From the NCBI GenBank assembly GCA_008632985.1, contig QPGO01000014.1:310001-374000 (forward strand): DNA of 64,000 nt, written 5' to 3'. The position numbers were made by a program, and so were the translations under genes. The notes under the pieces are model-generated. The model saw nothing but the letters and a program-made list of their open reading frames with translations. It was not told where the DNA came from and searched no databases. This DNA comes from Psammoneis japonica. Its lineage: Eukaryota. Within the stretch, counting starts at the first letter, position 1, and each line of letters starts with the position of its first letter. This document shows positions 1-44,173 of the stretch, piece by piece.

Positions 1-1403
1 AAAGCTTTTCTCACTGCAGGTCTTCTTCTCTTTTGGTTGCAAGATTTGTTGCTCTTGTCACCTCTGCCACACAACCACAACTTTGGCCTTGGTCTCTTCT
101 GCTTCTTGTTTTGCCCCCTCCTTTGCCACTCATTGTGCAGATGTTCACTGCAGGTTGGCATTTTGCAAGCACTCAATGTGCTGGTGCCAGCAACTCTTTG
201 GAGCACATGTTGAACTGGCAAGTCAATGTTGCCAAAAGGGAGTCCCACCAGGCTTCCTGTGATTCTCACTTCACTTGTCTTGGCAGTCTGTGTTGTCTGT
301 GGGTTGGCGCCAAAAGGTGCCTGGATGAACTGCAAACTCATGCAGTGACAGGTGCCTGCTGATGCCAAATGACAGGCCAAATGATTCACTCCAAAGAGTG
401 AGACAAGCCAAAAGCCAAAGGCAAATGATCAATGATGGTGAGGAGGTCCTCCACCACACAGAGAATCATTCTTTGAGCCACATCAGGGGACAAAACATCT
501 TTTCTTCAACGCACCCATGGGTCTGTTGCAACTGGCACCCATTTTCTGAAGCAGTGCAAGGTTGGTTGCTTGCTCACTGACAATGCTTGAAAAAACTCAT
601 CAAGCAACAAGTGGGGGGTGAGAACCTTGAAAATCTTGGCTTGAGCCCTCACAACAACAAAAACTGGCAAGGTGCACTCAAAAACAAGTTCCAACTTGAA
701 GGCATCAACACATTGAAGCAAGACCATGGGTTTGTGACCTGCCACTTTTGTCAGCATCACATTGTCTCCAAGACACCTTTCTTCAGCATGCACTGCAGCT
801 GGGCCATGCAGCCAGATTTGTGACAGGATGGAGAAGTCTTGCTTGCCTTCTCCCCTTCTTGTGTGTGTGGGATGATGCACAGTTCAGCTCAGGTGGGTCA
901 TTTGCAGCTGATGGCAATGCTGCTCCTCCAGATTGTTGACTTCCTTGCAAGAAACATTTTCAAAATGATGAGCCAGCATCTTCTTTTCAACCATGTGCTG
1001 GGGGGTGGCTGCAGCAGGTTGAGCTTTCAAAGCACACCACCACACATCACCATCTCAAGCACTCTGCTGCAAAACTGTGTCTTGTGCGTCAAGTCACTCT
1101 CCCCACACATGTCAGGCACTGCTTTCATGACAAGATCCATGTTGTCATTTTTGAAGTCTGTGACTGCATGCCTGTTGAATGAGCTCCAATGGACAGATGC
1201 TGGGGGCACAGCAGCAACCAAATGAGCTCAGTGTGTGCAAAGTTTTTGTCCTGCACACACCAAACACATTGCTCTCTCTTCAATTTTGAAAGCTGGTGGC
1301 AAGAGCTCCTCCTGGTTGTCAAGCTGCAAGCACAACTTTGGCAGCTCACATGGGGCAGCAACAATGGCGTGGCAGTGGCATGGCCAAGCTGTGCACAAAA
1401 AGC
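1..1403. other. Degraded TpA-free, CpG-poor sequence (older repeat/pseudogene) that was the target of the Copia insertion; continues at 8621-~9250
   Basis: No TpA found by eye in 1-1450 and very few CpG. Only short Cys/His-rich ORFs. The same composition resumes after the right TSD. Confidence 0.6.
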
Positions 1404-1597
1404 TGACAGAACACCAAAGGTCGACAATGACAGAGGTGTGAAAGACTCCCTAAAGTGCCAGGACTGTGACAACACGAGCACTGGCAGATGAGAAAGTGAG
1501 AAGCAGATCTCAGAGAGATCTGCTCGTCCATCTAAATGGTCCAGCCATCATCCGCATCCAGTCTGTCCATCCTGTGGTGGGTGCAGATGGGCTGACA
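1404..1597 (-). repeat. 3' LTR of Copia-1
   Basis: Colinear with 8422-8615, 14 substitutions, no indels. Confidence 0.95.
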
Positions 1598-1774
1598 CCC
1601 TCCCCTGATCTGCAACATCTCAAGATGGAGAACAGTGCAGATCAAACCAAAGAACATGGATGATGTGAGGAAAAAACAGAGAGACTGGACATGGGACATG
1701 ACAAGTGTCCATGCCCAATGCGCAATCAAGCAAGGGGGCAATTCACAGCAGGGAGGCCACCGCGGAAAAAAATG

Positions 1775-4700
1775 TCAACAGCAGTGTCCCATCATGCGTC
1801 GAGCGTGGCGAGCGTGTGGCACCCAGCCAAGAGCCTTGGCAAGGTCATCGCTGGGGTTGACAATGCCAGGGACATGTCTTGTGACAATCTTGCCCACTTC
1901 CTTCCATTCTTGGATCGCAAAAAACTGGATCTCAATGTGACAGGAGCGCTCGGTCGGAATCGAGTGATTGATGATCTTGATTGCCGATTCGTTGTCAACA
2001 CATGACGGGGTTGGCTTCGTCTGAGGGAAGCCCAGGTCTTGTAGAACGTGACGAAGGCACAGCACATGCTTGGCAGCAGTTCCAGCAGCACAAAATTCAG
2101 CTTCCGTAGAGCTTGCAGCGGCCACCGATTGGGTCTTGCACCGAAAAGACACAGCAGCACCAGCTGACATGCAAGCACAGCCAGTCGTAGAACGACGGTT
2201 GCGGAGGTCATTGCCATGAGCAGCATCCAAGAAAGCAATGAGTTGATGATCACATGCAGGACAAGGGAACGATGGTAAGGTCGGGTCCGGAGTGAGACGT
2301 TCGAAGGGGCAGGCAGGCAGTTTTGAGTCTCGGGTGGGCTTCTTGCAGTTCAATTCCCAATGCTTGGTGCGGCGAAGGCACTTGCACATTCCTTTGAGCG
2401 CGTCACAGTGAACCACAGCAGGACAGGTCGAGAACTTGGAGAGAGCAGTGACAGCATGCCCAATGTCCAGTTGACAGACAACGCACGCATGCAACAATTC
2501 GCCAAGAAGAGTTCGGCAGCTGAAACCAGCAGCTTGTTGTGGCTCCGCATGCTCCGGGGTTCCTTCAGCTGGGCCAACAGCAGTGTGCAGTTCGCGAACA
2601 GAGTCAACAGGGAGTGGCGCAGCCTTGCAGTCATCGTCGAGTTCCTCGTCCGTCGGTGTCGACCAACCATGTGAGGCACAAACCCGATCTACACAGCTGT
2701 GAACAGCAATGCCAATGGAGTCATCACATTGATGAACATCCACTCCATTGAATTCTTCAATCAAGCCAAGACACTTGAACGGCGGAGAGGTTTCCGATTC
2801 CAATTGGAGAGCTTTGCCAATCTTGTTGTAGATCTTGATCGCAACAGACTCTTCAGGACAAGCGAGAGAGAAATCATCAACCTGATGGAGGAGCAAGATC
2901 TTGTGTCCTTCAAAAGCAGCAGAGCAGATGCATTTGTCATGAGCAGTGTTGCGAAAAAGCAGGTTCACATCAGACAAAATGCCGTTGATGTGCGTCTCCC
3001 AGAGCACGCCGGCTTCTGGGTGTCCTTGGAGTGCATGTTGCATCGGAAGTGCCATGCTCCCATCCAAGTCAATGCCAAATCGAGCCTTGCACCAGGTCGC
3101 GCATGCCTTGTCTGTGGCAACACACACGGGATGTGACGGTCGTGGGGAGTGTGCATGGGCATCACGAGCATCCCCGCCAAAGACAGGATAGCTCATGGTC
3201 GCAGCAAGGGCAAAAAACATGCATTGGATGGGTTGCTCGACACGGGATGAGCACGTCGAGTGGAGACGATGTAGCATCGATGCAGCACGGGGAGATCCAT
3301 CGCAGCACTGTCGAGAGTGCCGTGTGCCATCATGCTTGAGGTCATGTTGCCAATGCGGACGAAGTGCGATGGCATCCTTGGGTCGTTCAATCGGTGCACC
3401 AAACATCCCCAACTCATGGAACTGGTCAAGTTGTTTGAATTCACCTGCATGCCATTCGGGCCATGTGTCCAACTTCTTGAGATGATGGCGGGTGAAAGTG
3501 CCTGAGGCTTGTTCCTCTGGAGCAATGGCGTGAGATGATGCAGCACAGACATTGACTGTGCCATTGTCACAATTGACAAAGAACGGCAGAGGGACATCGT
3601 CATCATCCGTTTCGGAGAAATCAATGTCGGGGTGGCGGATGGCAGCAATGGCACGCATGTCGGCGTTGGTGATTTCCGGAACATGTTCATCATCAGGATC
3701 AGGAGTCGGTGCATGTGTGTTGTGTTCCATCAGAGCACGTTGTAGAGCTTGAGAGTCCAGGCGACGTTCCAGCGCAAATTCAATTTCAAAATGAGTCTTG
3801 CCAGAATCACAGACTTGCTGAAAACGTTTGACAGCCTCCTCTGCCGTGAACACAGGATGATCATCGATCGATGCGACACATGCACCCTTGATCTTGTTGC
3901 GGGTGGCCTTCAAAGAAGAGAAAAGATGCGCAGCAGGAGAACCATGCTTGATGTCAGAGACAAATGCTCGCCGATGGAGATCGTCCGTAGCCAAGGAAAG
4001 TCCAAACGTGGGATCAGCAAATGGTCCCTTCATCGTACGCTTGATGGTCTTGGCAAAAGGATTCCCATGAAAGTGAAACTCATCCATCGTGGTTTCTTCA
4101 GTCTTGGCAGGTAAAGCCTTGCCATCTTGAGCACGTTCCAAGTGAACCACATTCGGCGGAAGAGAGTCGTGGGGAAGATCATTCATGCCCTCATCACAGC
4201 GGATGTGCTTGGCAAGCTTGACACGCGATGTCTCAGTGTCATGCCAAAGAATGTTCTTGGCAGTGTCCGGAAGATGACCTGAGAACATTCCCTTGCAAGA
4301 GACAGACCGAAATTTTGCTGGGCGGTGATTCGACGCACGCACCCACACTCGACAACCAAATGCACGAAAGTTCTTGAAATCATCCTTCCGACCAGCAGCG
4401 AGAGCAATCGGAGCAGCAGGTTGTCCGCGGGATGGCACAGCGTTGTTGATTCAAGTGAAATGATGAAAAGCACAGGGCCAGAATTTTGTGGGCAAATCGG
4501 CACTGATTGGCATCGCCCGGATGGCGTTGGCAACAGACAAATGACTGCGTTCCACTGGGTCACTCTGATTTGAAGCATCTTTTCCTGTAGGACGAATTAC
4601 ATGATGAAAGTCATCCTCGAAGAGTTGCCGAACTTCTGGGTTTTGATGCAGTTCACCTCCTTGATCCATGAGCACACATTTGTCTGGACATTTTGGCGAG

Positions 4701-6133
4701 TGCTCTTCCAGAAAGTGGTGAAGCCAATTCAAAGGGGTTGCCTTGGAGACACGAGTCGCACCATGGAGATGCTTCGTTTTATGATCGTAAATGGCAATCC
4801 AACAAGTCTCGCCATTCAATCCAACACAGTCCTTGGTGCGCTCCGAATTCTTGGAGCGTAGGCCAGAGAAGGAAAAATCAATCGCAAGGCCTTGGTGGGG
4901 TTGGGTGGCAGTGAGAGCAGTGTTCAGACCAGCAGGTTCCTTCGTCTGCTTTGCTTGTGTGCATGTGGGACAAGTGTTGAGGGGAGAGGTTCCGTGAGCA
5001 AACTTGGGGACGCCGTCAACGTGTTTGTGGGCATTGTAAAGGCAGTGATCACTCGGATGACCAAGTCGCTGATGCCACAAAAGACCTTCCGTGTCGGCCT
5101 TGAGAGACTGGACAGGAACATTCTTCTCAGCATGCTTCTCGAAAGGAACATCTTGACAGACACGGGGGATCAACTTGCGTTCATCACGAAGAGCTTCATG
5201 TTGGTGGGTGCGACAAGTCTCAATCACACACACAGAGACCGCTTCACACTCATTGGCAAAAGAAGGATCACTGGTCTTGAGGCGCTCGATGGATGCATCC
5301 AGTTCATCGTTAGATTCCGGGAGAATGAGAGGGTGAGCAAAACATTTTCCACTGATCAATTTCCCATGAACAATGACATCCTGACTCTTGCGCAATCGGT
5401 GTCGTGCAACAAACTTGCAGGTGCCAAGATCTTGGAACTTGAGAATGCAATCGACATTGCAATCTGCGCGACGAGTGCCATTTTGATGGAGCAGTGGTCG
5501 CTCATCGACCAACGTAGATTGGATCTGCGGGTGACAGCATGTACGAACCTCAACACATCCGGCAGAGTTCTCTGCAGGAATCCGCAGGCATCCGAAACCA
5601 ACTGGGACAGCTTGATGGCCAAGGGCGGGATTGACAGCAAGGGGACAGGGATGAGACGGAGTGAATTCTTGGTGTCGATGGAGGAGGTCACGGTCGCCTG
5701 TGCACGCAACATCAGCACCTGCATCGAGTTGAGCACAACGTTCATTCGGAGCAAAATTGACCCCATGGACAGAGCAAGTAGAGCGCAGCAGTTCTGGTTC
5801 AGGAGAGTGAGTTGCTTGGTGTGGATCAATCAGAGCAACTCGAACAGAATTGACTGCAGCAAAACCATCTTCAACGGCCATGTCATCATAGGTGAGATCA
5901 ATGTGTTCCTCAAAATCTGGTGTTTCTGAGGCTTCCCTCCCCTGTTCCACAGGATCCGGAGTGGGAGCAGCATCGACGGTGTCTTCTTGAGGAGCAGGGT
6001 CATCGTCTGGCAATTTGCCAGTGTCAAATGACACCTTCTTGGCAGTGGCAGGGGTGGTGTCCATGTCAATCTGCGGAGAAAGAGGCACTTCAGCGGCAGA
6101 TGACGAGACGGTTAGTCCCTCTTTCAAGGTCAT
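1775..6133 (-). pseudogene. Copia-1 pol (protease, integrase, reverse transcriptase, RNase H), split into ORFs 4451-6133 and 1775-4438
   Basis: LDAGADV protease motif, LWHQRLGH and CPTC integrase zinc region, MDQGGE integrase core, ALQGHPEAG and LHQVDD (CoDi-type RT), DAAHGND/STEAEF/DNESAI RNase H. Only 2 Tyr in the 887-aa ORF. Confidence 0.92.
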
Positions 6134-6498
6134 CTTGCTGACATTAGTCGTGTCTCGGTGAGGAGAAAACGGGCAGCGTCGGAGATCCGAAACTAGCTGC
6201 GACGGCCCAATTGAAAATCCGAGGGCGGAGCACCAGATTTGGTCAAATTTTCAGGGTTTTCATGATGAGGGGGGAGCAGGCCTTGGGGTCCTTGGAACTC
6301 AGAAGCACGCACAGCTGCCTCCCTCTTCAAGAATTGGCAAAAGCGGACATGGAATCCCTTGACACATGGATTGTTCCGCAAGACTGGACAGTCGTCAAAT
6401 GAGTGTTCACCGGAGCAAACGAGACATGGTTTCTTGGAAGCTTCAGTTGGAGTGACTTTCAGCTTGTAAACTGAAGCCGAGTGGACATGGTGAAGGAG

Positions 6499-8274
6499 TC
6501 AATCTTCGTCCGTGGAGGGGAACTCGAGTCCATGCAACTCGTTGCAAAGAGTGTCGAAGGCATCTGAAGACAGAGATTCTGCACCAGCATCTTCAACAGT
6601 GGAGTCATCGACTGGTTCAAGTGGAGGGATCTCGGGGACCTGGAGAGCATTGACATCAATGGTCGTGCGTCGTGTTTCCTCATTGGTGCGGTTCCATTTA
6701 CGGTGGGGATTGGATGGCGTCGCACGGGTGTTGAGGGATGGACCACCCGGTTGGCGGAGGAAATCAGAGAGAGTCTTGACAATCTGTGCATCGGCGCACT
6801 TCTTCTGCACAGCTGGAGACATCCGTTCATCTCTGGCAGCACAAGACAAGAACTTGGAGCACTTGGTGTTCTCAACAAAGATGGTCATCTCTCGTGGATC
6901 ACTCAACGTAGAGTCCGCATCAAAGATGCAGGCACGCAGCTGCAGGAAATCATTGAAAATCATGTGGTGGTCCATCAATGATCGATTGCCTTGGGTGGGA
7001 CAGGAATCAACTGGTCCTGCAGCATCGTGGTCAAAAGCAGGGTGATTCTCGTAGACAATCTGCTTGAGAGCCTTGCACCCATTGCCGCAGCATGATGCAA
7101 CAATCCGATGATGCTTGCTGTTCTTGGGGAACATGTCCGACTTGGATGGGATCTTGTGGAGAGAGCTCTGGGCTTCCTTGCAGTGGATGTACATGCACTG
7201 GGGTGAGTCGTCATCTTTGCCATTTCCAATCTCAAAACCTTTCTCACCACCGTGGTCCTTGGCAAAACACCACAATGGGTGCACGTGGCACCCTGAATCA
7301 AAGGCATGACGTTGGAAATTTTGGCACCATGCGCGCATCCCAGGAGGAGAGTCATCGTGACACACAGGAGGTTCCCTGAACAACATTTTCTGGTCAGGAG
7401 TCGAGCTCATGATGAAAAGAGTGCCATCATCAAGGATGATGCGATCGGATGCATCAATGCAGTGACGGAATCCATGGTCGCAAGGGACGAGAGAACTCTG
7501 GAGAGCAACTTTGCCGTCTTCTTTGCGGTCACAGCGTTCATGAACATCTTTTGGCAGCGTGTTTGGATTGAAGAGGCATTTCGATGTAACGGAAGATGTG
7601 GTGCTTCCGGATGACTTGGCAGAAGCAGCAAAAGGCGGAGCGTGGCTCGACGCATGTGTGTTGAGTGCATTGACTGAGTCACCCACACTCACCGCAGCCG
7701 ATCCTGCAGTTTTCTGAGGAGGAGACAGAGGCTGCTGTTTCTGCTGGTGGGGTGTGAGAGAGAATTCGTTCCAATTGCGACAGCTCCACATCATGTCCGG
7801 ATCAACACGCATGTGTTGGGTAGATGTGGTGATGAACAGAGATTGTTCACCGTTCTGAAGATTCGTCTTGATCATCTTTGACAAGATCGGAGTCGTCAGG
7901 CAGACTGGACGGGGCCTTTGAGGGTCAAGAAGTCTGAACGGGGCTTGATCCACAATCGACTTGATTGATTCTACATCCATGGGATCTGCTGTGCAAGGTG
8001 GAAATGCTTGGTGGATGAAACAATCGCGAAGTGTGTCCGCAAAATCGTTCTTGGGTTGCGCATGCTCTGGATCGTCAAAAAATCGATCGAGATCAGTTGT
8101 GGAGTCCGCACAAACCGCACTCAGGCACTGATGTAGATGTGGTGTCGTTGCATGTGCCTCAAATTCACAGCAGATCTCTGCAATTGACGCAGGAGCGGCT
8201 TTTGAGGTCGGGAGATGCCATGGTTTTAGTGGGTGGAGCCATTTTTTGGTCATGCACGTGTGGAAATCTGGCAT
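6499..8274 (-). pseudogene. Copia-1 gag-like ORF
   Basis: Long ORF between PBS and pol. Homologous to the 5' part of the deleted copy at 30580-31365. Confidence 0.75.
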
Positions 8275-8421
8275 GTTTCTACGACCGTGAAAAATGCCGG
8301 GAAAGCGAGATAAAAAGTTGTCTGATCAGACGATGAGGCTCGCTCGATCGGCTCACAAAACAAATGAATCGAAACAGAGAGCTTGGTGCAGAGGTCTGTG
8401 GCACAGCGCATGGCCACAACC

Positions 8422-8615
8422 TGACAGAATGCCAAAGGTCGACAATGACAGAGGCATGAAAGACTCCCCAAAGCACCAGGACTGTGACAACACGAGTGCC
8501 AGCAGATGAGAAAGTGAGAAGCAGATCTCAGAGAGATCTGCTCGTCCATCTAAATGGTCCAGCCATCATCCGCATCCAGTCTGTCCATCCTACGGTGGGT
8601 GTAGATGGGCTGACA
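8422..8615 (-). repeat. 5' LTR of Copia-1
   Basis: Direct repeat of 1404-1597, followed by TSD AAAGC. Confidence 0.95.
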
Positions 8616-9462
8616 AAAGCCTGCACTGTGGCAAAAAAGACACACAAAACAAGGAGAAGAGAGGGGGGAGAAGATGTCAGAAAAGCCTCTGTCAGCAGTC
8701 AGGCTGCTTTCAACATGAATGAAGATGTCTTGCTGTGTTTGCTTTTGCAGAAAAGTGGCACTTTGAAAGGCATGTTTGCACTGCTGCACTGTGCCTGCTG
8801 TGGTGCAGCTGAGCTTGTTGGCAGCACGCCGTTGCTGCCACATTTTTCTCAAAGAATGATGAGAAGAGGAGAGGGGCGCGGGCCATGCAGAGTGTTTTTG
8901 CCACCCCTTCTCACAGGCTGTGCGTGTGAAAAGGTCAACTGTCCTGCATGCAACACATTGCAAGAGTTCTTGGCAAACACTCCTGCCGTGCTGGGGATTT
9001 CAGACTTTGGCTCTCGTCCACATCAAAGAGACAGTGGCTGGCTGCAGCAGCAGATGTGGGGGCACCAGAGCCACCGCCACACATTGCCGTCTTTGTGACA
9101 TCACGACAATTCATGAGCCATTGTTCAGCTGGAGAAACACACAAGAGACTCAACATGTGTCTTGTGCATTTTATGGCCAATGTCAAGTTTGGGGTGCAAG
9201 TTGTTGCTGTGCCTCAATCTGCAAAACACACCAGCGTCAGGCGGATGGATGGGCGGACGTGGAAGGCTGAATGTTCTGTCTGTCCATCGTCCAAAGATCG
9301 CATCCGCGACGCCGGAGAGTTCGCATCGCGGACAGAAACCGCGGAGAAACTGAAAACACACAACGCACAACGCACCGTCACATCCATCACATCATCAGTT
9401 CACATCAAACTGTAGCAACAACAACAACAACAACAGCAACAACAAGAGTCAAAACATCAACG

Positions 9463-11338
9463 ATGTTCCGAGCGTTCCCAAAGCTAGTTCCAAGGGCCAC
9501 TGCCCGAATTCGGTCTTCTTTGGTTCGTTCTAGCAATAACTTATGGAAGAGTACTACTACGACACCATCGAGGCGATTGGAAGCCATGGTGATTCCGCTT
9601 TCCCGTCGAGGTGCGTATCGAGCCGTGACGGTGGTTGATCCGTCCGAGCAATCCAGAACTAGCGCTTCGAAAAACCTCGGTGGTGCTGTGGCAGCCATGG
9701 TGGCACTCTTGGGGTTATTAGCAACGTCTCCTCAAAACAATAATTCAAAATGCGAGTCCTTGACTCCCGCTGCTGTGGCACAAGATGACATTGATTACAT
9801 CACGTCGGCAAAAGAAGACGACTTGCCCGAGTACACGGCAGAGGAGGTGGCCAAGCACAATGGCCAAGATGGGACAAGTGTGTGGATGACCTATGGTGGG
9901 GTCGTTTATGACGTGACGGATTTTATTGCCAACCATCCCGGTGGATCGGAAAAGATAATCATGGCTGCCGGGTCGGTAAGAAAAAAAAGTGCAAAATGTC
10001 TGACGACTTACGCAAGATCATGTCCTTACCGTTTCTATTTTTCTACAAATCCTCTAGGCCATTGAACCGTACTGGCACTTGTATCGTCAACACTTTGCTA
10101 CCGACTTGCCCATGAAGCTCATGGAACACATGATGATTGGGAGATTGGCCGAAAAGGATCAAGACGAGATTGATGCACAAATGGAACAGATGGTGGACGA
10201 TCCGTACGAATCCGATCCCATGCGACACGCGTCCCTCAAGATTCATTCCGACACACCCATGAATGCCGAGTTGCCCTCGACGCTCTTGACGGAAAACTAT
10301 CTAACGCCTCCGGCGCTTTTTTACATTCGTCATCATCATCCCGTACCCATGGTCAAGAATGTGAACAAGTATCGTCTCAGTGTCGATTTGAAAGCGGTGG
10401 GCATTGAACAAGAATTGAAGCTGTCGTTGGAGGATATAAAGAAATTACCAAAGCACGAGGTTGTTGCAACGCTACAATGCAGTGGCAATCGTCGCAGCGG
10501 TTTCAATCAAGTCCAGCGGACCTCTGGCACGAGCTGGGGACAGGGTGCCATTTCTACCGCCAAGTGGGGCGGAGTGTGGTTGAGGGATGTGTTGGAGATG
10601 GCTGGTCTACAGGATGCAATTGAGGCACAAGAAAAGGATGGAATTGAACACGTCCGTTTCGAGAGCCTGGATGGCATGTCGGCATCGATTGGAATTGAAA
10701 AAGCCATGAACCCATACGGTGATGTGTTGTTGGCGTACGAAATGAATGACGAGCCGCTACCCCGTGACCACGGATATCCGATGCGATTGATAGTTCCAGG
10801 TTACGCTGCAGTCCGCAATGTTAAGTGGCTCAACAAGATTGAGCTGGCAAAAACAGAAGCAGAAGGACCGTGGCAACGCGGATTAAATTACAAAGTGTTG
10901 CCACCCTCCGTGACGGATGCCAAGAATATTCAACTGGAAAAAATGCCAAGCATGACTGAGGTCAGTTTGTTCTCGGGCATCACAAAGGTGGAACGTATCC
11001 AAGAGAGCTCAGGAGAAGTGCTGCTAAAGGTTGGTGGGTGGGCCTGGTCGGGCGGTGGACGCAACATTGTGCGGGTCGACGTGACTCCGGATGGTGGTAA
11101 GACCTGGTGCACGGCAAAGTTTACAAAAGGCAGTGATCAGAAGTTTGGAAGAGCTTGGGCCTGGACATTTTGGGAGTGTGAGGTACCGGCGGCGGTCCGA
11201 GAAGACGGTACGGTAGAACTCGCTTGCAAGGCGGTCGACATGGCTTTCAATGTGCAACCCGAAAAATGTGACCACATGTGGAATGTTCGAGGTCTTGGAA
11301 ACAACAGCTGGTACCGAACTTATGTGCGACTACAGTAG
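9463..11338 (+). CDS. SUOX: Sulfite oxidase (cytochrome b5 + Moco + dimerisation domains), mitochondrial-type presequence; intron 9976-10057
   Basis: YDVTDFIANHPGG b5 motif, FYIRHH, LQCSGNRR, DHGYPMRLIVPG, WNVRGLGNNSW. A phase-0 GT-AG intron joins the two ORFs (AAGS|AIEPYW). Confidence 0.95.
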
Positions 11339-11552
11339 GACCAACTAGAGAATTGTAAAGCAGTTAGAGAGAGTGCCTTATTTTTACATTGTTTTGAAGA
11401 AAAGCAGGGTTGCCATCACTTGTCGTCTTTCGAAGAGAAGAAAGAGAAACTACTGACACAGGGGAGTGACATGGAATTAGCTATTGCAACAGTAATTTAG
11501 CCTATGTACAATTTTGTGCATCCCAAGAGATGCACACCTTGCTGCTGCTGTA

Positions 11553-12643
11553 CTACTGGTATTCCAAAAACGAGTTCATCACATTTCTGTAGTCACCAGA
11601 CCACCTTCTCGATGCCGTCTTCTCGCCCAAATGGAAGCGGGATCCATTTATTATTTTCTTGCTGGTAAACAAGTTTATATCCAACAGATAGTCCGCTGGA
11701 ACAAGGGAATGAATGTATGCATTGTATTTTTCGTACGCTTGTCTCAACACCGAAAAGTCGGTCACTCCTAAATCCGTGGCGGACCCGCTACACTGCGAGT
11801 ATGAAAAGGGGTCTGGCGTATCTTGCCATTTCGAGCAAACAAAACCAACACTGCTCTTTCGGTGATCTCCCTGTCGTTTCGTTGCCCACGCCCGTGAATC
11901 ACGACGAGTCAGAATCACCTTGGTGGTGGGCCCTAGCGCAAAATATAGCTCTGTGATTATATTCACAAATGGAGAATCCATCAGCACAATTCGCCCACAG
12001 TCTCCACAGGACAGCATACGAGCCAAACCATCGGCCTGAATGTTGCGCAGTCTCTGATACGCTTTTTCGTCCACATTTTCACGATCCCGTACGCCCATCA
12101 TTGCCAGACGCGTGTCTCGTACGACGTCCGTGGCTGCTGTATTCATGCAAGCTTGGATTGACTCGTTTAAGCACCCGCGCACCTTTCCAAAATGAATCGT
12201 TGTAAAGTTTATTGGGGGGAGCCAGTTTTGTGCCACGTCTCTCGTTCCCGTTGTACCGCGTCCGGCCAAAAGAGCAATGGAAGAATTGTAGTTTTGAACC
12301 GCATCTACGATCTTGTGAAAAAAGGGCATATCCGGCAAAAGCTCTGTCAAAGCCAGCTCGGGACGTCGCTGCAATGCGGCGAGAGGACTGGAATCAAAGA
12401 TTCGGGAATTAAGGATGTCGTATCGTTGGAGATTATTTGTGCGCATGGACTGGCATTTTGTTCTTCCACCGTATCGGCGCGAACCAGAACCGACGAATCG
12501 CAGCCTTCTATTGTTGTTTGCATCGGCGTTGTGACAAACAGCAAATTCCCCTGCCTCCATTGCACTGTCAGTATCAATGTCAACGCTGCTGCTACGAATA
12601 TAGGATCGAATCCAGCTCGGCGCTTCTTCTGAACCAGGCCCAT
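11553..12643 (-). CDS. Type II membrane P-loop sulfotransferase-like protein; apparent 1-nt frameshift near 12350
   Basis: N-terminal basic stretch and TM in ORF 12347-12652. GRGTTGT and KVILTRRDSRAW motifs in ORF 11553-12731. The frames join across a T run. Confidence 0.6.
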
Positions 12644-12879
12644 GATGTTCACAGTTGTTCACAATGTTGAACGATTGACGGTTGCGCTGCAGGTGAGATG
12701 TTGACGGATGAATAACAGGCAAATCAGGCAAACGAACCGAACTCTCTACGCTGCGCTATCCATACGGTAGTACTCGTAGCTACGTAGGGCCCTACTGTAA
12801 AGAGATAAAAGAAAATGGAAAAAATGAGACAAACCGGCAAACGGGATTAGAATCCGGGACCAACCCGGGACTCGTGTAA

Positions 12880-14030
12880 AACGGCTGCTCTGTGTGCTGT
12901 GCACACAAGGCTGATGAAGTGACAGCATGTTGCCCACCCAGCAAGCGGGCTCGTTGTTAAAAAAAAGTGAAATGCTGTGGTCAAGATCATGTTGCACAAA
13001 ACAATGATGTGCAAAAGAACAAAAATGCTTGGGGACAACTCTTTGCGCAGAGTTTGCTCCTTTGAGCCGGACCAAGGAGGGGCAGCAGCAGAAGCCAAGC
13101 CCCACTCCACCACACTGGCGCCGCTGAGTCTGCATGTTTTCTGCCATGAACCCATGCACTGGTGCACATCAACAAAGTCCAGCAGCCCTGGACTGCATGT
13201 GTGAGTGCTCAGGGTGTTGTGCATGCAGTCGAAAAAAAAGCTTTTTTTTGCGCTGTGTGTGTGTGGCACTTTTTTAAGGGCAGATCCCCATGCGGGTGGC
13301 GGACATTTGCGGGCCTCAAATTTCCCGCACTTCACCGGTCATTTGGACCTGTCATGGAACACTCCCAAACACTTGTGCATTTGACAAACCCTTTCAGGGC
13401 TGTCAGAACACTGCGAGAGCTGTGTGTTGAAGGCTTCAAAAACGCCCGCTTGTCGGCCTGTCCCTGTTGCCCAGTTGAAGTTGCCGCCAACTGTTGCTGC
13501 TCATGGCAAATGAGCCATGACTTTTCAGGAAATGCCAACAATTTGTGTTTGATCAGCTGCAGACACATCCACAGTCGACAAGCCAAATGTCGCACATCAT
13601 GGGCACAACCACTGCCCAGCCATTCTGTGATGACATGTCGCAGGGACAGGGACAAAGTTAGACCTGCAGCATCGCTGGAATTTTTTTTGGCAAATGCACA
13701 TGCTTTTAGTGCAATGAAGAATTTTTTTCCAAAAATTGATGGGTCTGTAAACATCCGCCCTCACCCAAGCACATCCATCCTCAAAGGGGGCGCAGCACAT
13801 GCACACAGTGGGGGGGCACATGATCGTGTTGTGTGTCCTTTCAACATTTTTGCCAATTGGTCATTCAGAAAAGCTTTAACTATCATGTTGTTGCAGGCAA
13901 TGTAGATGGCTTGGCCTCCAGAGATCAGATTTTGCGACCATGGCAAGCATTTGAAGGAAGAAGGAAAGGGAGGCAGGATGGAGTTGGAGGGATTGATGTT
14001 TGTCAAGTTTGTTACTCGTGACTGAAATTT
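12880..14030. other. TpA/CpG-depleted island, degraded unidentified element or gene
   Basis: Abrupt TG/CA-rich composition between two intact genes. Residual minus-strand ORF pieces with no recognisable domain. Confidence 0.55.
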
Positions 14031-15801: not shown

Positions 15802-17605
15802 ATGTCTTCGGAAAACAGTGATGATGAGTCAACGCTGCAAGAAACAACGGCTTCTTCCTGGATAAAAAAGTCAGACCATGGGAGCATTCATTTTTCTGTG
15901 CCTCTTTCCGAGACCTACAGGCTCTTTACCCGTCCAATTCAGCGCCAACGATGGGGTGATACGCAGATTCATCCCGTCGTGAATTGGGGAGACTTGTTCT
16001 TTGACTTATTCTACGTCGGTGCAGCTTATAACCTCGGTTATATTATCGTGTACGATCCTACCAATCAGGGCCTCTTGTACTTTTGCGGAGCTTTTCTGCC
16101 TGTGATTCAAATGTGGATGGACAAGACCTATTACGATGCTCGCTATTTTACTCGGGATGACTTGTACCATCGCCTTTATGAGATTGCGCATCTCTGTGCG
16201 CTTGCAACCGCCATTGTTCATATTCGTCCCGTAAAGTTTCTGTCAAACCCAGAAGAACACATTGACATGTTTGGTATGTCGCTTGGATTCTTAGCTGCCC
16301 TTGTCTTTTCCAGTGGGCGTCAGCTGGAGGTTTACTTTTGGGTTCGCGGAGGACCTGAAGCCAAGACGAATTCACTGCGAGACTTGTCTGCCAAAGTCAT
16401 TCTGTTTGCCTTTTACCTTGCCTCCACAATTGTAGCAGGTACAAAGTACTTTCAGAATGAAGGAAGCAGCCGTCGGATGCTGGCGGGTGATGAAGAGGCA
16501 TCAAATACTTATGAAACATACTCCTCCTCGTCTACTGATCTTCCGATTTGGCTGTTACTTGCAGGATCCTTGGCGTGGTGGGCATATTTTGTGGGTTTGA
16601 TCGTTTTCCTTCTTCCTGGGGGAGGAGCGCACAAGCGGTGAGTATTACATTTCCCAGGGGAGCTCCAAGTCCCTTATCATGGCATACGCACACCTCATAC
16701 GTGTATATCTCGTTCCCGTCTTCTTCAGTTTCATTGTCCCCGCCAACATCAGCTTCACGATTCACCGTTATGGCGAATGGATCATGCTCGTGTTAGGAGA
16801 AAGCATTCTTAGTCTCTTGATTGTAGATGTGTTGGACCCGACGGGCAAATATTACCTTACCTTTTATGCAGGAATATTGTCAGTGGTACTTTTGCAGTAT
16901 CTACACTTTCGATCGCAACCTCACGACCCAGATGATCACGCCTTGAGAAGAAGTAAGAACCAAGGAGTTCTGTTTAGTGTTCTCATGGCGATTTATTCTG
17001 GTGGTTTGATCTTGATTGGGACGGCTTACAAGATGCTTGTGAATGAGCACGCACTTGCTCAGATTATTGCGGCTGATGACAAGGGCCGCATGATGTTGTT
17101 CGCTCCCATGCGCTTGCTTGCTGGTGGTGACGACTCGGGTCTCTCTACAGAAGAACGCCAACAGTCCGTAGCAAATTTATTTTGCGGCAGCATGGCTGTC
17201 GTTTGGTTGACCAATGATCTCATGATGATCAATCACAATGGACTCAAAGACAATCTTGGACGGTGTGTCTGCAAGGAAAGCAAGAGATGGAGTATTTCTG
17301 GAGTCGCAGTCATTATGGCACGCATTGGACTCATCATCTTTATTGCCACTCTGCGTGGATACGTTACGGATCCAACAGCTCTTTCCTTGATTGGACTCGC
17401 TGGAATTTCCGCACAAGTGATTCTTCGTGTTGTTGGATCGTTGGTGTTCCCGTCCGATCAAGTCCATGCTGTAGATACTCAAGGACTGCAGGTTCCAAAT
17501 AATCAGGACGGCGAAGAAAAGAAAAAATGGCCTAATGTAACCCACGCAGTCGCACAGCCATCGGAAGAAATCGAAGCAGGGACGGACGCCGTAGAACGGA
17601 ATTGA
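15802..17605 (+). CDS. Low-temperature-requirement A (LtrA)-like multipass membrane protein; intron 16638-16728
   Basis: WGDLFFDLFYV and HRYGEWIMLVLGESI motifs, many TM segments, phase-2 GT-AG intron. Confidence 0.8.
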
Positions 17606-18135
17606 TTTGTTTGGGTTGAAAATGAAGAAGATGCTTCAGATGCATTGCTACAGCATGGACTATAATAGGTTGATGACATCGAGAGCGATAAAAGGCTTGT
17701 GTTGTGCATACGTATACAAGTTGTATTGTTACCTTTTATCATTCTCACTACACACAATAATTATACCAATTTCCGCACAAGTGATTCTTCGTGTTGTTGG
17801 ATCGTTGGTGTTCCCGTCCGATCAAGTCCATGCTGTAGATACTCAAGGACTGCAGGTTCCAAATAATCAGGACGGCGAAGAAAAGAAAAAATGGCCTAAT
17901 GTAACCCACGCAGTCGCACAGCCATCGGAAGAAATCGAAGCAGGGACGGACGCCGTAGAACGGAATTGATTTGTTTGGGTTGAAAATGAAGAAGATGCGT
18001 TCAGATGCATTGCTACAGCATGGGACTATAATAGGTTGATGACATCGAGAGCGATAAAAAGGCTTGTGTTGTGCATACCGTATACAAGTTGTATTGTTAC
18101 CTTTTATCATTCTCACTACACACAATAATTATACC
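17404..18135 (+). repeat. Head-to-tail tandem duplication (~364 bp unit) of the LtrA-like 3' end and UTR
   Basis: 17404-17767 is repeated at 17768-18135 with four single-base insertions and no substitutions seen. Confidence 0.9.
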
Positions 18136-18444
18136 ACTGGGAACCTGGCTCTTATCTTGGGCTAACTTTGATCCAGTTTCCCATGTAAACACATTCATCC
18201 CCGTTCATCCCCTACACATTTATTTCAGACCTTAACTCGGCAATAATCGTCATATCCATGGCAAGACAATCCCCGCTACACGCCCTGTCAAACCACGAAA
18301 GGCGAAATCAATCACGCCTCAATGCGAATCAATCTCGATGCACATACGTCCTTCGTGATTGAACAAGGTGTCCAAGAAGCTCTCAAGACATCTTCAAATC
18401 AAAACTATGAACTACGCATCGGAGAAACCCGTCCCCTTCCCCTT

Positions 18445-21112
18445 TTAGTGGTCGTACATGATGGCTCTTAGTAAGGCGCTTCGGTGCGCAGCTTTCATCT
18501 CAATCTTCTCCAAGACTTTGAATTCCTCATTTTGAGCCCATAGTTCTTGGTCAAGCATTGCCGCACTATCGAATCCGTACTCAACCAACCGTCTCGAGTA
18601 CTCTTTAAGATGATGCTCACCTAAAAGAGGCAGTTTGTCTGTGAGCCATTCTCTCACCTCATCAAACTCGTCAACCTTGCGTTCTTCGCCGACGCTATCA
18701 CTAAAATCGCCGGTAGCAAGAATCTTTTCCAACTTTCGCTTTTTCTGTGGAACATTCTTGGTTGATTCTTTCTTGGCAATGGGAATCTTGGTGGAGACTC
18801 CCCTTTTATCGCGTTGCTCGCCCCGTTTCCTTTCTGCGGGACGTCGTTCTCGCTCCACCTCTGGAGGACGATCCATATCAAAATCTTCCGGCGGCGGAAA
18901 GTCTCCTCGAGAAGGTGGTCTTCTTGGTGACATTTCTGCGCGTTGCCTTTGCTCTGGAGGGACATCCATGTCAAAAGCTTCTGGTGGCGGAAAGTCTCCT
19001 CGAGGAGGTGGCCTGTCCGGTCCCCGAGGTGGCGGCCTTTCCGGTGGCACTTGTCCTCGAGGTGGCGGCCTTTCCGGTGGTGGAAAGTCTCCCCGCGGAG
19101 GTGGCCTTTCCGGGGTTAATTGTCCTCGAGGCGGTGGCTTTTCCGGAGTCAATTGTCCCCGAGGCGGTGGCCTTTCCGGCAGTGGCCTTTCCGGCGGTGG
19201 AAAGTCTCCCCGAGGAGGCGGCCTTTCCGGGGATATTTGTCCCCGAGGCGGTGGCCTTTCTGGTGGCAGTTGTCCCCGTGGAGGTGGCCTTTCTAGAGGC
19301 ATTTGTCCTCGAGGGGGTGCTCTGTCCCGAGATAGTGGTTCCCGAGGCGGTGGCCTTTCCGGTGGCATTTGTCCCCGTGGATGTTGCCTCTCTGGAGGCA
19401 TTTGTCCTCGAGGTGGTGCTCTGTCCCGAGATAGTGGTTCCCGAGGCGGTGGCCTTTCCGGTGGCATTTGTCCCCGAGGTGGTGGTATTTCCGGAGTTAG
19501 TTGTCCACGAGGCGGCGGCCTTTCCGGTGGAGCGCTCTGCTCTGGAGCGGAGAACGGTGCAAGGTCTTCCATTTTCTCTGCAAAGTCGTCAGGCGGGAAT
19601 GATCCTCTAGCAGGGGGCTTCCTTTGAGCAGGGGGGCCTGCAAATGGGGATGGGTCCTCCATTCTTTCTGTAAAATCATCAGGGGGGTATGATCCTCTCG
19701 CCGGAGGTTTCTGCTGAGCAGGCGGGGTACCAGCAAACGGGGATGGGTCATCCAGGTCCGTAAAGTCATCAGGCGGAAACGCTCCACGCTCACGAGGCCT
19801 GTTGGAACGGTTTTCAAAAGCAGATGGCTCGTCATAGCGTGCAAAATCATCGCGTGTTGGTGGGAATACCGCCCTTTCTGGTCTTCTTCTGTTCGAGAGA
19901 GGGTGAGCGGGTCCATTATCGGGTGATAAGCTATCCTGTACAGGCGATTCTGGTCTTCTATTCCTCCTAGCTTCAGCAGCTTTCTTCCTTGCTACAAGTT
20001 CAAGAGCCTTCCTTGCTACTTTCGGGTCTCGAATAACATCGTTGACATCATTTTCATCAAGCGCCCTTTCAAGTTCTTCATAGCTACTAAATTCAGGCAT
20101 GGTCGCCCGCATTTCGTTTCTAATGCGTTGCTCCTCGAGTCTAGCGCGCTCTTCGGCTTCTCGATGTCGTTCCTCTTCAAGTCTAGCGTGCTCTTCGGCT
20201 TCCCTAAATCGTTCCTCCTCAAGTCTAGCCTGTTGTTCATCGGCTTCAAGTCTAGCGCTTTCATCGGCTTCTCGAAGTCGGTCTTCCTCTTCAGGTATAG
20301 CGTTCTCGTTATTACCATTACGACGCTCATAACGGTGCGGTACTTCGTCATGATGGGCTGTATCAAGAGAGCACCAACGAGAGTGTGAGATATGTATATA
20401 TAAAAAAAACAGGTTGTTGTAGCACAACGAGAAAACATAATAATGATACAAAACAAAGACTTACGATGCATCGGACCGCCGTATGCTTTCATGCCAAAAT
20501 CTCTTCCATCGCCTTCAAAATCAAAACCGTCTTTTCCTCCGACACGCCCACTGGATTCCATCAACATTTCCGCCGCACTATCCACATCCCTGTTGCATGC
20601 TATATAGGCCTGCCTCGCATCGGCAGGATGAAACCCCATTCGCGCCAGTCGATCGACAGCCGCCGACTCTTGCTCCGTCAGACTCCCAGTTCCAGTTTTG
20701 AAGGCAGGGCCTTTTGGCCGATAAGGCTCATGACGGGCAGTATTCTTTTGATCTCTCTCTAAAATGTCGCTAAGTACTTCCGTTGCAGAAGGAGCTGCAT
20801 CATCATACAATGTACCGGAACGAGCACGGTTCGTTTCTGAGAAAACAATGAGGGAACAACAGAAGTAAACCAAAGGCACAAGAGACAAATCTGAATCGTA
20901 CCAGGACGGGCCCGAGGTTGGTTATTATAACCATACTCATAGGCACTTTCATCTTGTCCGCGAAAGCCAGGAAGAATGTCACCATTCGCATAAAGTACTA
21001 CGAAAGGCTTATTCCTGCCAATCTCAACGCATACCCTTCTCGGAGGCGCAAATGCATCCGCTTCTTTTTTCCACAATGCCACGAGCGCAACCACGGCAAT
21101 GTAAAGCTTCAT
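18445..21112 (-). CDS. Putative plastid-targeted protein: signal peptide + AFAP, UBA domain, coiled coil, PPPRG repeat region, C-terminal SAM-like domain; introns 20837-20901 and 20358-20464
   Basis: MKLYIAVVALVAL...ADAFAP; AVDRLARMGF...ACNRDVDSAAEML (UBA); many PERPPPRG units; VREWL...GFDS...MKAAHRSALL (SAM-like). Splice phases are consistent. Confidence 0.8.
18880..19760 (-). repeat. Coding tandem repeat (~33-39 bp units) encoding (P)ERPPPRG(Q/D)
   Basis: Recurring cgaggcggtggcctttccgg units on the + strand. Confidence 0.9.
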
Positions 21113-23799: not shown

Positions 23800-24322
23800 T
23801 TTTCTTTCTATCGTCGCGGTGGCTTTTTGGTTCTCTCAATGATATGAGAAGGTCGGCAACAGTGAGAAAATGACACAGGCAGTGTCACAATTCACAATCC
23901 TGTGTCTGAGAAAGATCGCGACCAAACCGTGCTGCGTAGAATCTACGCGAAAAAGATACGGAGATTCGACACTTCGTGAGTTGCCTTCCGTGACATCCTG
24001 TAGAATTCTACGAAGTTTTTCCCGTATTGTTTTGGCGGGAAAAAGGAAAGGAATGTCCGCGATGTCAATGTTTCAAAATGCTGCAATCTGATTGGCTAAA
24101 CGACAAACTTCACTCTACTCCGCAATCTTCCCGCCATCCGATCGGCAGAACGAGTCGTCGCGGATCTTTGCTCGCAAATGTCGTGAAGCGAAACGATGGC
24201 CGAGAAGTTAGGTGCCGGTTCTGACAGTGAACAAGAATCAAGGTCAAGGCTGTGCGTTTCGAGAGTTCGATCTCTTTTTTTATTTAATGTCTGCCTTGTT
24301 TCGGTTCCGCCAAGAGCAAAAA

Positions 24323-24850
24323 ATGAGTAATTATCCCTTTCAAAAGACACAAGAAGAGTGGCGTCGGCAATTGACTCCGGAAGAACATCACGTGCTCCGA
24401 GAGGGTGGCACTGAATCGTACGGCAAGGGCGAATTCTGTCGATTCTTTCCCAAAGCTGGTTACTTTGCATGCAAGGCCTGCAAATATCCCCTCTATTCGG
24501 CGGCATCAAAATTTCAAGACCCGGGTTGGGACGCGCACTCCAAGTGTTGTCACAGCAACGACAAGCCTCATATTGGTGTACGAGAGGAGAATGAGGTAAA
24601 ACGAAACCCGTTTTGACTGTGCTCTGTATGGAGTGTTTGCCGTGTAAATAACGCGGTTAATCTTCTTTTTGCAAAACAGGTTTGCTGCAACAACTGCGGA
24701 TCGCACATGGGTCATGTGTTTTCCGAGCGCCGCCATAGCAATACAGGAGAGCGTCAATGAATCAACAGCATATGCGTAGTGCATGTTCCAGATCACCCCC
24801 CTCCGGAAAGCATTTCAGGAGAAGGACCATTGGGTGTGTTTTCAAAGTAA
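24323..24850 (+). CDS. msrB: Methionine-R-sulfoxide reductase B, selenoprotein (in-frame UGA at 24758-24760); intron 24596-24679
   Basis: [23 protein letters not shown] and [12 protein letters not shown] zinc motifs, GERQ-[TGA]-INS at the catalytic RxCxNS position. Reading continues to TAA 24848-24850, with a SECIS downstream. Confidence 0.9.
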
Positions 24851-24904
24851 AAACAAATCTTTAGAATAGAGTGGATTTGCGGAGAGCGGAAGTAAAGGAG
24901 TCTT

Positions 24905-24976
24905 CGTGGATGCGAATGACGGCGTGTGTGATCAAGAAATACATAGCTTGCCAAGCACGCCTGAAAGCATGGCACG
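24905..24976 (+). promoter_or_regulatory. Eukaryotic SECIS element in the msrB 3' UTR
   Basis: Lower stem CGTG.ATGC/GCAT..CACG, core ATGAC (24916) / TGAA (24962), upper stem GGCGTG/CACGCC, apical AAGAAA. Confidence 0.8.
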
Positions 24977-25088
24977 TGGTTTCCTTTTCTCGCTCTGCTG
25001 TCCACATTTTGAATTGAGAAACTGATTTCTTGTCGTGTTTCGTTGAGAGTCGGGTCTACTCGTAGAACAAGGAATGGCAGTTCTCTAG

Positions 25089-40200: not shown

Positions 40201-40267
40201 GAGTGACGTTTTTGTCGCTGATGACAGTCTTTGCAACGGCGGGTCACAATGACCATTCTGACGATTT

Positions 40268-40449
40268 TGCAAGATCTAGCTTGAGATGACTTGACAAAAG
40301 TTGTGGGAGAACCAAGAAGAGACCCGATCAGCGCAATCGCTGATTGGAACTGACTTCCAACGGCTTCCTGAGTGTCCAATGCATCAGTCAATGTGCATGT
40401 GTCAGAGAGGGCACACTTGGTCATAAAGTGCATGTGCCCATCTCATTCA
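40268..40449 (-). repeat. Gypsy 3' LTR (TpA-depleted copy)
   Basis: Colinear with 45744-45925, 17 transitions. Confidence 0.95.
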
Positions 40450-40499
40450 CTCTTCCCCTCCATGGTGCAAGGAACACGCGCACCATTGGAACCACTTGA

Positions 40500-43400: not shown

Positions 43401-44035
43401 TCACACCCATCATCGCATCCACAGTCCGACTCGTCTTCATGATTTTCATCAAATTCATCCATTCGATCTAAAGCCACACACCAGTCACAAGATTTGGACC
43501 AATGACGAGGTTCCTTCATTGGGATCACATGGTCCAGCCATCGCAGTGTCCTCGCATCATAGTTCAGGTTGAGACCAATCTTGTCCAAGAAGTCTCGACC
43601 CAAAATGATGTCATGCACACACGGAGCATCAAATGCGTGAGCCACACAGCTGTCAATCCTCCCAGTTTTGTCAAATTCTGGTGACACGACATCGCTCAAG
43701 GCTGCCCAACGACCCGATTGGAAAGGACCAGCCACGGTTTGGAAAGCTCTGACTCCATGTTCGTCAACAGATGGTGTGGCTCCTCGAGGTAAAACTTGGG
43801 ACAAAATCACAGTGTGAGAACCACCTGAATCGAACAAAACACGCATCACACGATTTGACTCATGCCATTGGATTGATTTTGCAACAAGCAGTGCAGATGG
43901 GACCAATGCGGTGCGCGAGACTTGCGAACTCATTTTGGGGAGAGGAACATTGTGTTCAAATGCATCTTGATCAAACACATCCCCCTCTTCATTCATGTAA
44001 TTTTCTGCAGCATTTTCAAATTCAGTGGGTGACAA
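40500..44035 (-). pseudogene. Gypsy pol (protease, RT, RNase H, integrase), frameshifted
   Basis: LFDSGGSHT protease, KLDL and TCVDD (from YxDD) RT, CTDASDCQMGA and EKELLA RNase H, HxxLGH/CDAC, VDLIGP, HDNGGEF, NSICERMH integrase. Confidence 0.92.
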
Positions 44036-44173
44036 TTCGTCAGGATTTTCAAAACAATCAAAAGCAAAACATTCATCATTTCATTCAGGCAAAACACAAT
44101 CATTTTCTTCAACAAATGCTTCTCTCACAGGCAATTGGGAGCATTCAGCTCCGGAGCATTCAGCTCCTTCTTC

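Follow-up and report, generated by a model that had tools for sequence, protein, structure and literature searches.

The DNA considered here is a stretch of 64,000 nucleotides from the diatom Psammoneis japonica (GenBank assembly GCA_008632985.1, contig QPGO01000014.1, positions 310,001 to 374,000, forward strand), referred to below as the window and numbered from its first base. Within it host-gene stretches are interleaved with repeat blocks, among them two long terminal repeat (LTR) retrotransposons, Copia-1 and Gypsy, each inserted into other repeat DNA. The original prediction, made from the window alone, held that the bodies of both elements keep abundant CpG (CG) while TpA (TA) is nearly gone, that the older sequences into which they inserted have lost both, and that two uncoupled clocks are responsible. 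Having compared these elements with copies elsewhere in the genome, we favour, with a probability of roughly 0.6, two chemically different processes that share the silenced domains of this genome, namely a mutator of TA that is fast and uneven in its activity, and a slower decay of CpG.

Nested retrotransposons and their dinucleotide content

Copia-1 lies on the minus strand, with a body (1598-8421) between a left, 3' LTR (1404-1597) and a right, 5' LTR (8422-8615) of 92.4% identity. It has the characters of a Ty1/copia element, namely LTRs of the form TG..CA, a 5-bp target duplication (AAAGC, before the left LTR and after the right) and an integrase ahead of the reverse transcriptase (RVT_2), and the body also matches SH3_retrovirus and gag_pre-integrs. 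The body contains 38 TA against 398 expected (observed/expected ratio, o/e, 0.10) and 325 CG against 456 expected (0.71). With the sister copies as reference, 172 of 215 CG sites survive in the window element, as do 29 of 199 sites of TA type, a post-insertion loss of about 20% and about 85%, respectively. All 9 difference events between its two LTRs fall in TA, CG, CA or TG steps. Its frames are long but nearly free of tyrosine (7 of 2098 residues, compared with 93 of 3166 in host open reading frames, ORFs). No unhit copy of Copia-1 was present among the 38 examined, the least loss being found in copy L032 (TA o/e 0.22).

The target of Copia-1 is degenerate repeat DNA. Its left part (1-1403), the end of a block of about 7 kb that extends upstream of the window, contains no TA where 92 are expected (o/e 0.00) and 4 CG where 83 are expected (0.05), and TA o/e in the 1-kb bins further upstream is 0.01-0.04. 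The first 400 or so bases of this flank have 41 other matches at 68-85% identity; a parent copy for the flank was sought and none was found. The right part (8616-9410) is TA-free, save for a single step, as far as the next host gene, and CpG recovers towards that edge: positions 8616-9000 hold 0 TA and 6 CG, and positions 9001-9410 hold 1 TA (23 expected) and 22 CG (28 expected). Because the right part is of the same age as the left and has nevertheless retained CpG at 9001-9410, position must count besides age.

Gypsy, also on the minus strand, consists of an inner LTR (40268-40449), a body (40450-45743) with RVT_1, RT_RNaseH and Integrase_H2C2 domains, and an outer LTR (45744-45925); it is flanked by GATTT and inserted near the end of an LTR of an older element, Copia-2. 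Positions 40450-45450 of the body hold 33 TA (o/e 0.10) and 223 CG (0.72). In the part for which retention was determined (43100-45450), 75 of 93 CG and 11 of 102 TA sites survive, a loss of about 19% and about 89%. The two LTRs of this single element were treated unequally. The inner LTR lies inside the mutated domain and differs from the outer one by 13 mutated TA steps, 3 mutated CG steps and 1 other change, whereas the outer LTR, which adjoins a host gene, was struck by neither process (TA o/e 0.97; 15 of 16 TA and 6 of 7 CG sites retained). Tyrosine accounts for 6 of 1594 residues in the Gypsy frames; an unhit copy has 32 of 1105, and the host proportion is given above.

Copia-2 (34279-40267, minus strand; RVT_2 match at 35382-36062) has its right LTR split by Gypsy, so that it ends at about 45942, and contains 17 TA (o/e 0.04) and 94 CG (0.26). 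A short, older relative of Copia-1 that has both LTRs and an internal deletion (30195-31784, minus strand; 68-77% identity to the Copia-1 ends) is likewise depleted in both dinucleotides (TA 0.03, CG 0.21). Differences between paired LTRs outside TA and CG steps number 0 of 194 in Copia-1, 1 of 182 in Gypsy, 11 of 178 in the short relative and up to 20 of 210 in Copia-2, the last figure including some differences from misaligned ends. These few points suggest that CpG loss tracks neutral age.

The target-site duplications at both insertions confirm the nesting that had been proposed. As the ratios above indicate, the two bodies are indeed TA-poor and CpG-rich, with the correction that CpG is not intact, about a fifth of the sites being lost. 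Depletion of both dinucleotides in the older targets holds for 1-1403 and Copia-2 but does not extend to 9001-9410. As evidence for two clocks the nesting carries less weight than had been claimed: saturation of one clock running at two rates mimics the same o/e pattern, so nesting alone cannot tell the two apart, and it is the spread among individual copies that separates them.

Direction of change and loss copy by copy

The direction of mutation can be read from a host gene with a SelR/MsrB domain (24269-25086, plus strand), which is intact and serves as the parent of a dead duplicate at 49680-50472 (plus strand, 75.8% identity). The duplicate is not a transposon, yet it was struck by both processes: all 23 TA of the parent are changed, 13 to TG and 10 to CA, and 34 of 38 CG are lost. 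It carries introns, and both strands are hit equally. The same direction emerges from an unhit copia copy, L071, and its hit relative L097, in which 109 of 123 TA are changed (55 to CA, 54 to TG) and 25 of 123 CG have become CA or TG. Of 189 difference events scored in another 19 LTR pairs, 163 lie in TA, CG, CA or TG steps, and a single TA site may be resolved as CA in some sister copies and TG in others. The TA change post-dates insertion and is a strand-symmetric conversion of TA to TG or CA. Copies of a young copia family with 98-99% identity have ordinary TA (o/e 0.71-0.75), and as these unhit copies exist the source elements were not TA-poor. Beside the unhit copia, L071:1300-1410 contains a repeat of about 105 bases with dozens of copies of 96-99% identity genome-wide, possibly the end of a young miniature inverted-repeat transposable element.

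Loss was expressed for each copy as a hazard, -ln(fraction kept), in three LTR families. The young family comprises 28 copies, from 99% to 70% identity, compared with one unhit natural copy; for Gypsy, 7 of 51 matches were taken in addition to the copy in the window. From the young family 8 of 28 copies entered the pooled set of 25 (those partly hit and of low background, the unhit, the divergent and one suspected blend being left out), alongside all 8 Gypsy copies and 9 of the 38 Copia-1 copies (seven sisters, the window copy and L032). In two of the three families the TA-type sites were deduced from polymorphism. Some sites resist mutation and so limit the TA hazard of old copies, which leads to underestimates near saturation and inflates the spread between families.

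In seven unhit young copies 19 of 1059 TA and 15 of 1343 CG sites are lost. The partly hit members of the family form a graded series, with losses of TA and CG, respectively, of 14/151 and 0/191 in L131, 34/152 and 0/192 in L135, 41/152 and 6/192 in L121, 68/152 and 7/192 in L136, 83/152 and 14/192 in L137, 91/120 and 11/136 in L143, and 115/151 and 5/192 in L138. Among the seven Copia-1 sisters, which are related in star-like fashion, the fraction kept is 10-22% for the 300 TA-type sites and 81-88% for the 402 CG sites, and transversions amount to 0.05-0.27%; by hand calculation the per-base TA hazard is about 1.0, compared with about 0.0016 for transversions. In seven Gypsy copies 4-17% of the TA and 74-86% of the CG sites survive; the eighth, L184, has kept 57 of 102 TA and 76 of 91 CG with an ordinary background. 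An earlier column analysis over mixed subfamilies (TA-CG rho 0.13 and -0.19) was confounded by subfamily differences and was set aside in favour of the star-like group. Several pairs or groups of copies (L134/L139, L121/L133, L122/L123/L132, L040/L041 and L045/L067) have flanks in common or are themselves near-identical, and are probable haplotypes. Between L121 and L133, 55 TA steps are kept in L133 only, through either allele-specific mutation or assembly blending.

Over the 25 copies the TA:CG hazard ratio has a median of 10.4, and the two hazards rise together (Spearman rho 0.83; 0.86 within one family). TA loss is the faster and saturates first, and it can run far ahead of CpG loss, as in the copies L135 and L138; this upholds the proposed order of events. 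The co-scaling across copies, which recurs within copies and at domain edges (see below), makes the word "uncoupled" too strong. A plot of TA against CpG per copy had been suggested as the check, with joint scaling as the outcome that would count against two clocks. That outcome was in part obtained, although a fixed TA:CG ratio is rejected (deviance 87.6, 24 degrees of freedom, p 3.5e-9). Family by family, the fixed ratio is rejected in the young family (p 0.0008) and Copia-1 (p 0.009) and not in Gypsy (p 0.11). The extremes are L138, with a ratio of 54 (95% range 23-168), and L184, with 3.2 (2.0-5.8).

Such data could also arise from one clock with two rates, that is, if a single process, either a deaminase acting on both A and C or simply the time spent silenced, yielded a ratio of about 10:1 and saturation and noise mimicked uncoupling. 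The rank correlation above would be expected under this explanation, as would a Pearson coefficient of 0.95 between TA and CG loss in the six full-length Copia-1 sisters and the bins and boundaries that the two losses have in common. The rate of C>T at CpG, by hand calculation about 55 times that of C>T elsewhere, is high for passive decay, and in amphioxus the enzyme BjADAT2 acts on A as well as on C in DNA (PMC10354150). However, rejection of the fixed ratio, within the young family as well as overall, is difficult to accommodate. L137 and L138, similar in TA loss, are unequal in their CG loss (p 0.03), and over all seven Copia-1 sisters the Spearman coefficient drops to 0.14. In lines of the alga Bigelowiella natans that show TA hypermutation the rates diverge widely, with uGC>AT 3.9e-9 and uAT>GC 6.85e-7 (bioRxiv 10.64898/2026.01.13.699255). 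We consider a single clock unlikely.

Shared territory, sequence context and the window landscape

The two processes of the reading we prefer do share territory. TA-loss intensity is uneven among copies and along each copy; in partly hit copies the hits are clustered along the element (0.783 vs 0.648 when shuffled) and the 3' end is mostly spared. When 300-base bins are ranked by rising TA loss, CG loss increases from 3/470 (0.6%) and 2/282 (0.7%) to 8/309 (2.6%) and 33/402 (8.2%), and within copies it is concentrated in the TA-hit bins (25 observed vs 17.7 expected, stratified p 0.001). In the outer LTR of Gypsy, 26 of 28 CG survive in four TA-spared copies compared with 19 of 28 in four hit copies (p 0.04). 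The CpG component itself is a C>T change that is CpG-specific, strand-symmetric and confined to repeats.

The context of the TA hits is enzyme-like. Relative to sites followed by A, TA followed by C is hit 6.6 times as often, by T 4.2 times and by G 2.7 times, and Copia-1 has the same 3' pyrimidine bias as the young family. TA directly beside CpG (CGTA) is hit less, by factors of 0.33 and 0.35 in two families. Hits do not form same-strand runs (0.492 vs 0.499; in Copia-1, 0.506 vs 0.503). Within hit copies AA>AG occurs at 20 of 2889 sites, A>G outside TA shows a small spill-over (38/8917 vs 26/13923), and C>T outside CpG is not raised (11/7683 vs 39/12011). As a matter of direct chemistry the change of CG to TG or CA cannot remove TA, so TA loss is not a direct product of CpG decay.

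An indirect route would be error-prone patch repair, in which mismatch repair and a polymerase-eta-like enzyme act at deaminated methyl-CpG and make TA loss a by-product of 5-methylcytosine (5mC). It would be expected to leave extra hits next to CpG, runs on one strand and numerous AA>AG changes. Besides the shared territory, TA sites less than 100 bp from a lost CpG are hit more often than expected (191 of 270 vs 148.8), and where CpG is locally denser TA is hit slightly more (rho 0.21), both of these associations being confounded with position in the element. At close range, within 10 bp, there is no excess (18 of 29 vs 15.6), and transversions are not raised. The protection of CGTA, the lack of strand runs and the scarcity of AA>AG argue that TA loss comes neither from deamination of 5mC nor from local repair. 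Patch repair is thus largely refuted by context and highly unlikely. Together with the rejected fixed ratio, the CGTA deficit sustains the original prediction that the mutability of 5mC does not cause TA loss as a side effect, although 5mC or chromatin may still guide the TA mutator.

Two known mutational processes were also considered as such and rejected. Polymerase eta mutates AA and TA within a few-fold of each other; in the diatom AA>AG is too rare for its WA mutagenesis (W being A or T), and hits do not cluster near repair sites. ADAR editing of retroelement RNA does not account for hits on both strands, for differing LTRs in one element, or for a hit duplicate that is not a retroelement.

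A more general concern is artefact or inheritance, through TA-poor source elements, RNA editing prior to reverse transcription, or errors of base calling and polishing. Blends of haplotypes or of polishing do exist, given that L134/L139 and L121/L133 share flanks and differ in blocks, and the high TA of L184 could be partly a blend. Nevertheless, the differing LTRs of one element, the equal hits on both strands, the intron-bearing host duplicate and the TA-normal unhit copies all stand against this explanation. In L184 none of the TA sites reads CG, and its surviving sites follow context (13/36, 37/58 and 7/8). The TA-free unique flanks of the window are moreover reproduced in contigs from a public sequencing run, with 0 differences over 219-1446 and 2 over 8562-10935, a comparison that checks base calling and not biology as the run may be the assembly's own sample. 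We regard artefact or inheritance as barely credible.

At 13183-13184 and 13554-13555, within a small TA-poor island at 12950-14000 (TA o/e 0.12, CG 0.39), the assembly has CA and the public-run contig TG; judged from the sequences, these would represent independent resolution on two alleles, and they hint at recent activity of the TA mutator. A second island, flanked by host genes, occupies 54100-55000 (TA 0.17, CG 0.54). The spared control next to the first island is formed by host genes at 9460-12900 (Pfam: a sulfite oxidase and a sulfotransferase-domain protein; TA 0.58, CG 1.02), the sulfite oxidase having about 70% identity to proteins of Grammatophora, Attheya and Phaeodactylum. Host-gene stretches in the window generally have, by dinucleotide counts, o/e of 0.50-0.64 for TA and 0.91-1.02 for CG. 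When the window is divided into 128 bins of 500 bases, TA and CG are both normal in 65 and both low in 35; TA alone is low in 27 and CG alone in 1. Within the public run X2 the host genes are covered with spliced joints and 1-9338 is not; this was not used as expression evidence.

Other repetitive features were noted. A tandem duplication of about 365 bases at 17404-18136 (98.9% identity) has normal TA and, as a contig joint falls there, is maybe an assembly duplication. A GC-rich ORF of 671 codons at 18445-20460 contains 33-base tandem repeats, lacks a Pfam match, and has normal TA despite its repetitiveness. At 32629-33987 there are AT-rich arrays of 29-31-base repeats with inverted symmetry, resembling the subterminal repeats of DNA transposons.

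Mechanism, candidate genes and known systems

The two-process reading may be put in mechanistic terms as follows. A fast mutator acting on DNA after insertion converts single TA sites on either strand to TG or CA, favouring T-A-C and T-A-T, with an intensity that varies between and along copies and saturates early. A slower C>T decay of CpG accumulates in the same domains, most likely by deamination of 5mC. The TA mutator would be a host enzyme of ADAT, TadA or ADAR type that is brought to silenced chromatin and deaminates adenine, the resulting inosine being read as G. In-frame T-A-Y is the tyrosine codon, and as tyrosine is stripped from transposon frames the effect might be genome defence.

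Deaminase genes in the genome include a TadA-like gene (L113), an ADAT2-like exon (L116) and two genes of ADAR/ADAT1 type with an A_deamin domain. The product of one of the latter, L195:1672-3388 (G000:C79), is a stand-alone ADAR-like editase that carries the motifs HAE and PC; it has relatives in centric and pennate diatoms (317 matches), and we name it as a candidate TA mutator. The second is L194:1935-3475 (G000:C40). Several C5 methyltransferase genes are also present; among the C5-methyltransferase domains found, none could be identified with certainty as DNMT5, the type with an SNF2 domain. The C5-methyltransferase loci L106 (G000:C301:34166-37723), L107 and L108 (G000:C297) lie in TA-erased DNA (TA 0.07-0.10, CG 0.66-0.74), and L106 and L107 are 94.8% identical, with differences mostly at TA and CG steps. 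These three are possibly transposon-borne or duplicated.

Several observations weigh against this reading. A>G cannot be distinguished from T>C on the opposite strand by sequence, and the deaminase genes are of kinds to be expected, either housekeeping genes or genes common to diatoms at large, none of them tied to the mutation. BjADAT2, the sole eukaryotic ADAT2 shown to edit DNA according to the accessible text, prefers GAA and TCG and not TA (PMC10354150). The hazard ratio in the older copies is strikingly constant (about 9-12 in 13 of 17 Copia-1 and Gypsy copies), as a single process could also give. The TA content of the 3' flank does not predict TA loss (rho -0.13, p 0.59, 20 young copies), and in the Gypsy copy L190 the outer LTR was hit though its flank is normal, so where a copy landed does not by itself define the "domain".

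The ambiguity of strand admits a variant that keeps two processes but in which the first lesion would fall on thymine: a T of R-T-A, oxidised or otherwise modified, would pair with G. Read on the opposite strand the event is T>C in TA, and its context may be given as R-T-A. The locus L115:313-1785 (minus strand, G000:C79) joins in one frame a guanine-deaminase-like domain and a thymine-dioxygenase-like 2-oxoglutarate-Fe(II) domain, which might be of interest here; the fusion would, however, rather resemble nucleobase metabolism. A search for TET/JBP gave no match, but its control was equally silent and hence absence is not established. A thymine lesion seems to us decidedly improbable.

With enzymatic adenine deamination as the preferred route, a wider proposal can be framed: diatoms and chlorarachniophytes would share a host DNA adenosine deaminase pathway, steered to silenced chromatin by 5mC or histone marks and switched independently of methylation decay, that rewrites T-A-Y on both strands and strips tyrosine codons while leaving frames open. 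The enzyme would be L195 or ADAT2, and the pathway a natural, chromatin-guided editor of adenine bases for genome defence across the stramenopile, alveolate and rhizarian (SAR) lineages. We put this forward as speculative and consider it rather doubtful. Whichever enzyme is responsible, the preference for T-A-Y, slowed by an adjacent CpG, provides a yardstick for candidates. Dating by LTR divergence is invalid in this genome unless TA and CG steps are masked, and dead elements retain long open frames and hence appear intact. The graded natural copies, from untouched to erased, indicate that the TA mutator is distinct and shares its territory with CpG decay.

Among known activities, A-to-I on DNA yields A>G, as with ADAT2 and TadA-derived adenine editors, and tRNA A34 substrates carry U on the 5' side of the edited base. 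In the literature searched no citation was found for a T-A-Y preference of TadA editors, and such a preference was not used as support. Amphioxus BjADAT2 edits DNA with a preference for GAA, TCG and hairpin loops, and no link to repeats is shown in the part of the paper available (PMC10354150). The slower, repeat-confined change of CG to TG or CA matches the CpG decay of methylated transposons, which cannot remove TA. In Phaeodactylum tricornutum CG methylation of transposons depends on DNMT5a (PMC9998398), and the existence of diatom DNMT5a knockouts makes guidance of the mutator by 5mC directly testable in diatoms.

Repeat-induced point mutation (RIP) of ascomycete fungi, which involves RID/DNMT4, is similar in being a dinucleotide-specific hypermutation of repeats that includes a host-gene duplicate. 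RIP converts CpA to TpA, is triggered by homology on both repeat copies and proceeds in processive same-strand runs. It was rejected as the process at work here: RIP creates TpA from CpA whereas the diatom process removes TpA, the two LTRs of one Gypsy were treated unequally with the outer one spared, as was the SelR parent, same-strand runs are lacking, and near-identical (98-99%) multi-copy young elements stay unhit, contrary to a homology trigger. RID-related DNMT4 genes do occur in diatoms (PMC9998398).

The closest likeness is to Bigelowiella natans, for which Mettrop et al. (bioRxiv 10.64898/2026.01.13.699255), in the part of the preprint available, describe TA-restricted hypermutation of integrated DNA that stems from NCLDV (nucleocytoplasmic large DNA viruses) and from virophages. 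There, in two viral regions and in some of the lines, A>G and T>C changes limited to TA arise at a rate of about 6e-7 per site and generation; for the larger region uGC>AT is 3.9e-9. The lines were vegetative mutation-accumulation lines. TA-poor coding sequences of B. natans are enriched in reverse-transcriptase and DDE domains, and the authors proposed adenine deamination (ADAT2) without demonstrating it. The same traits recur in the diatom: TA to TG or CA transitions on both strands, restriction to repeats with host genes spared (to foreign or silent regions in B. natans), and an excess over background of orders of magnitude (hundreds- to thousand-fold in B. natans). Intensity is uneven between the lines of B. 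natans and, in the diatom, between and along copies, which may reflect a similarly facultative activity. The systems differ in that B. natans is a rhizarian alga in which mutation of two viral regions was measured directly and TA is partly depleted (rho 0.45), whereas here LTR retrotransposons and a host-gene duplicate of a diatom are near saturation and the process is inferred from copies. A search of the main text of that preprint for "CpG" and "diatom" returned neither term, so that the relation to CpG and the T-A-Y bias are not covered there, and the open-licence PubMed Central and bioRxiv literature contained no account of TA erasure in diatoms. The one description of the TA to TG or CA signature found in open-licence literature is thus that from the rhizarian alga, and the signature itself is already published for B. 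natans; what the present analysis adds is its near-saturating form in diatom retrotransposons, together with the dose-response curve and the tests of context and domain sharing.

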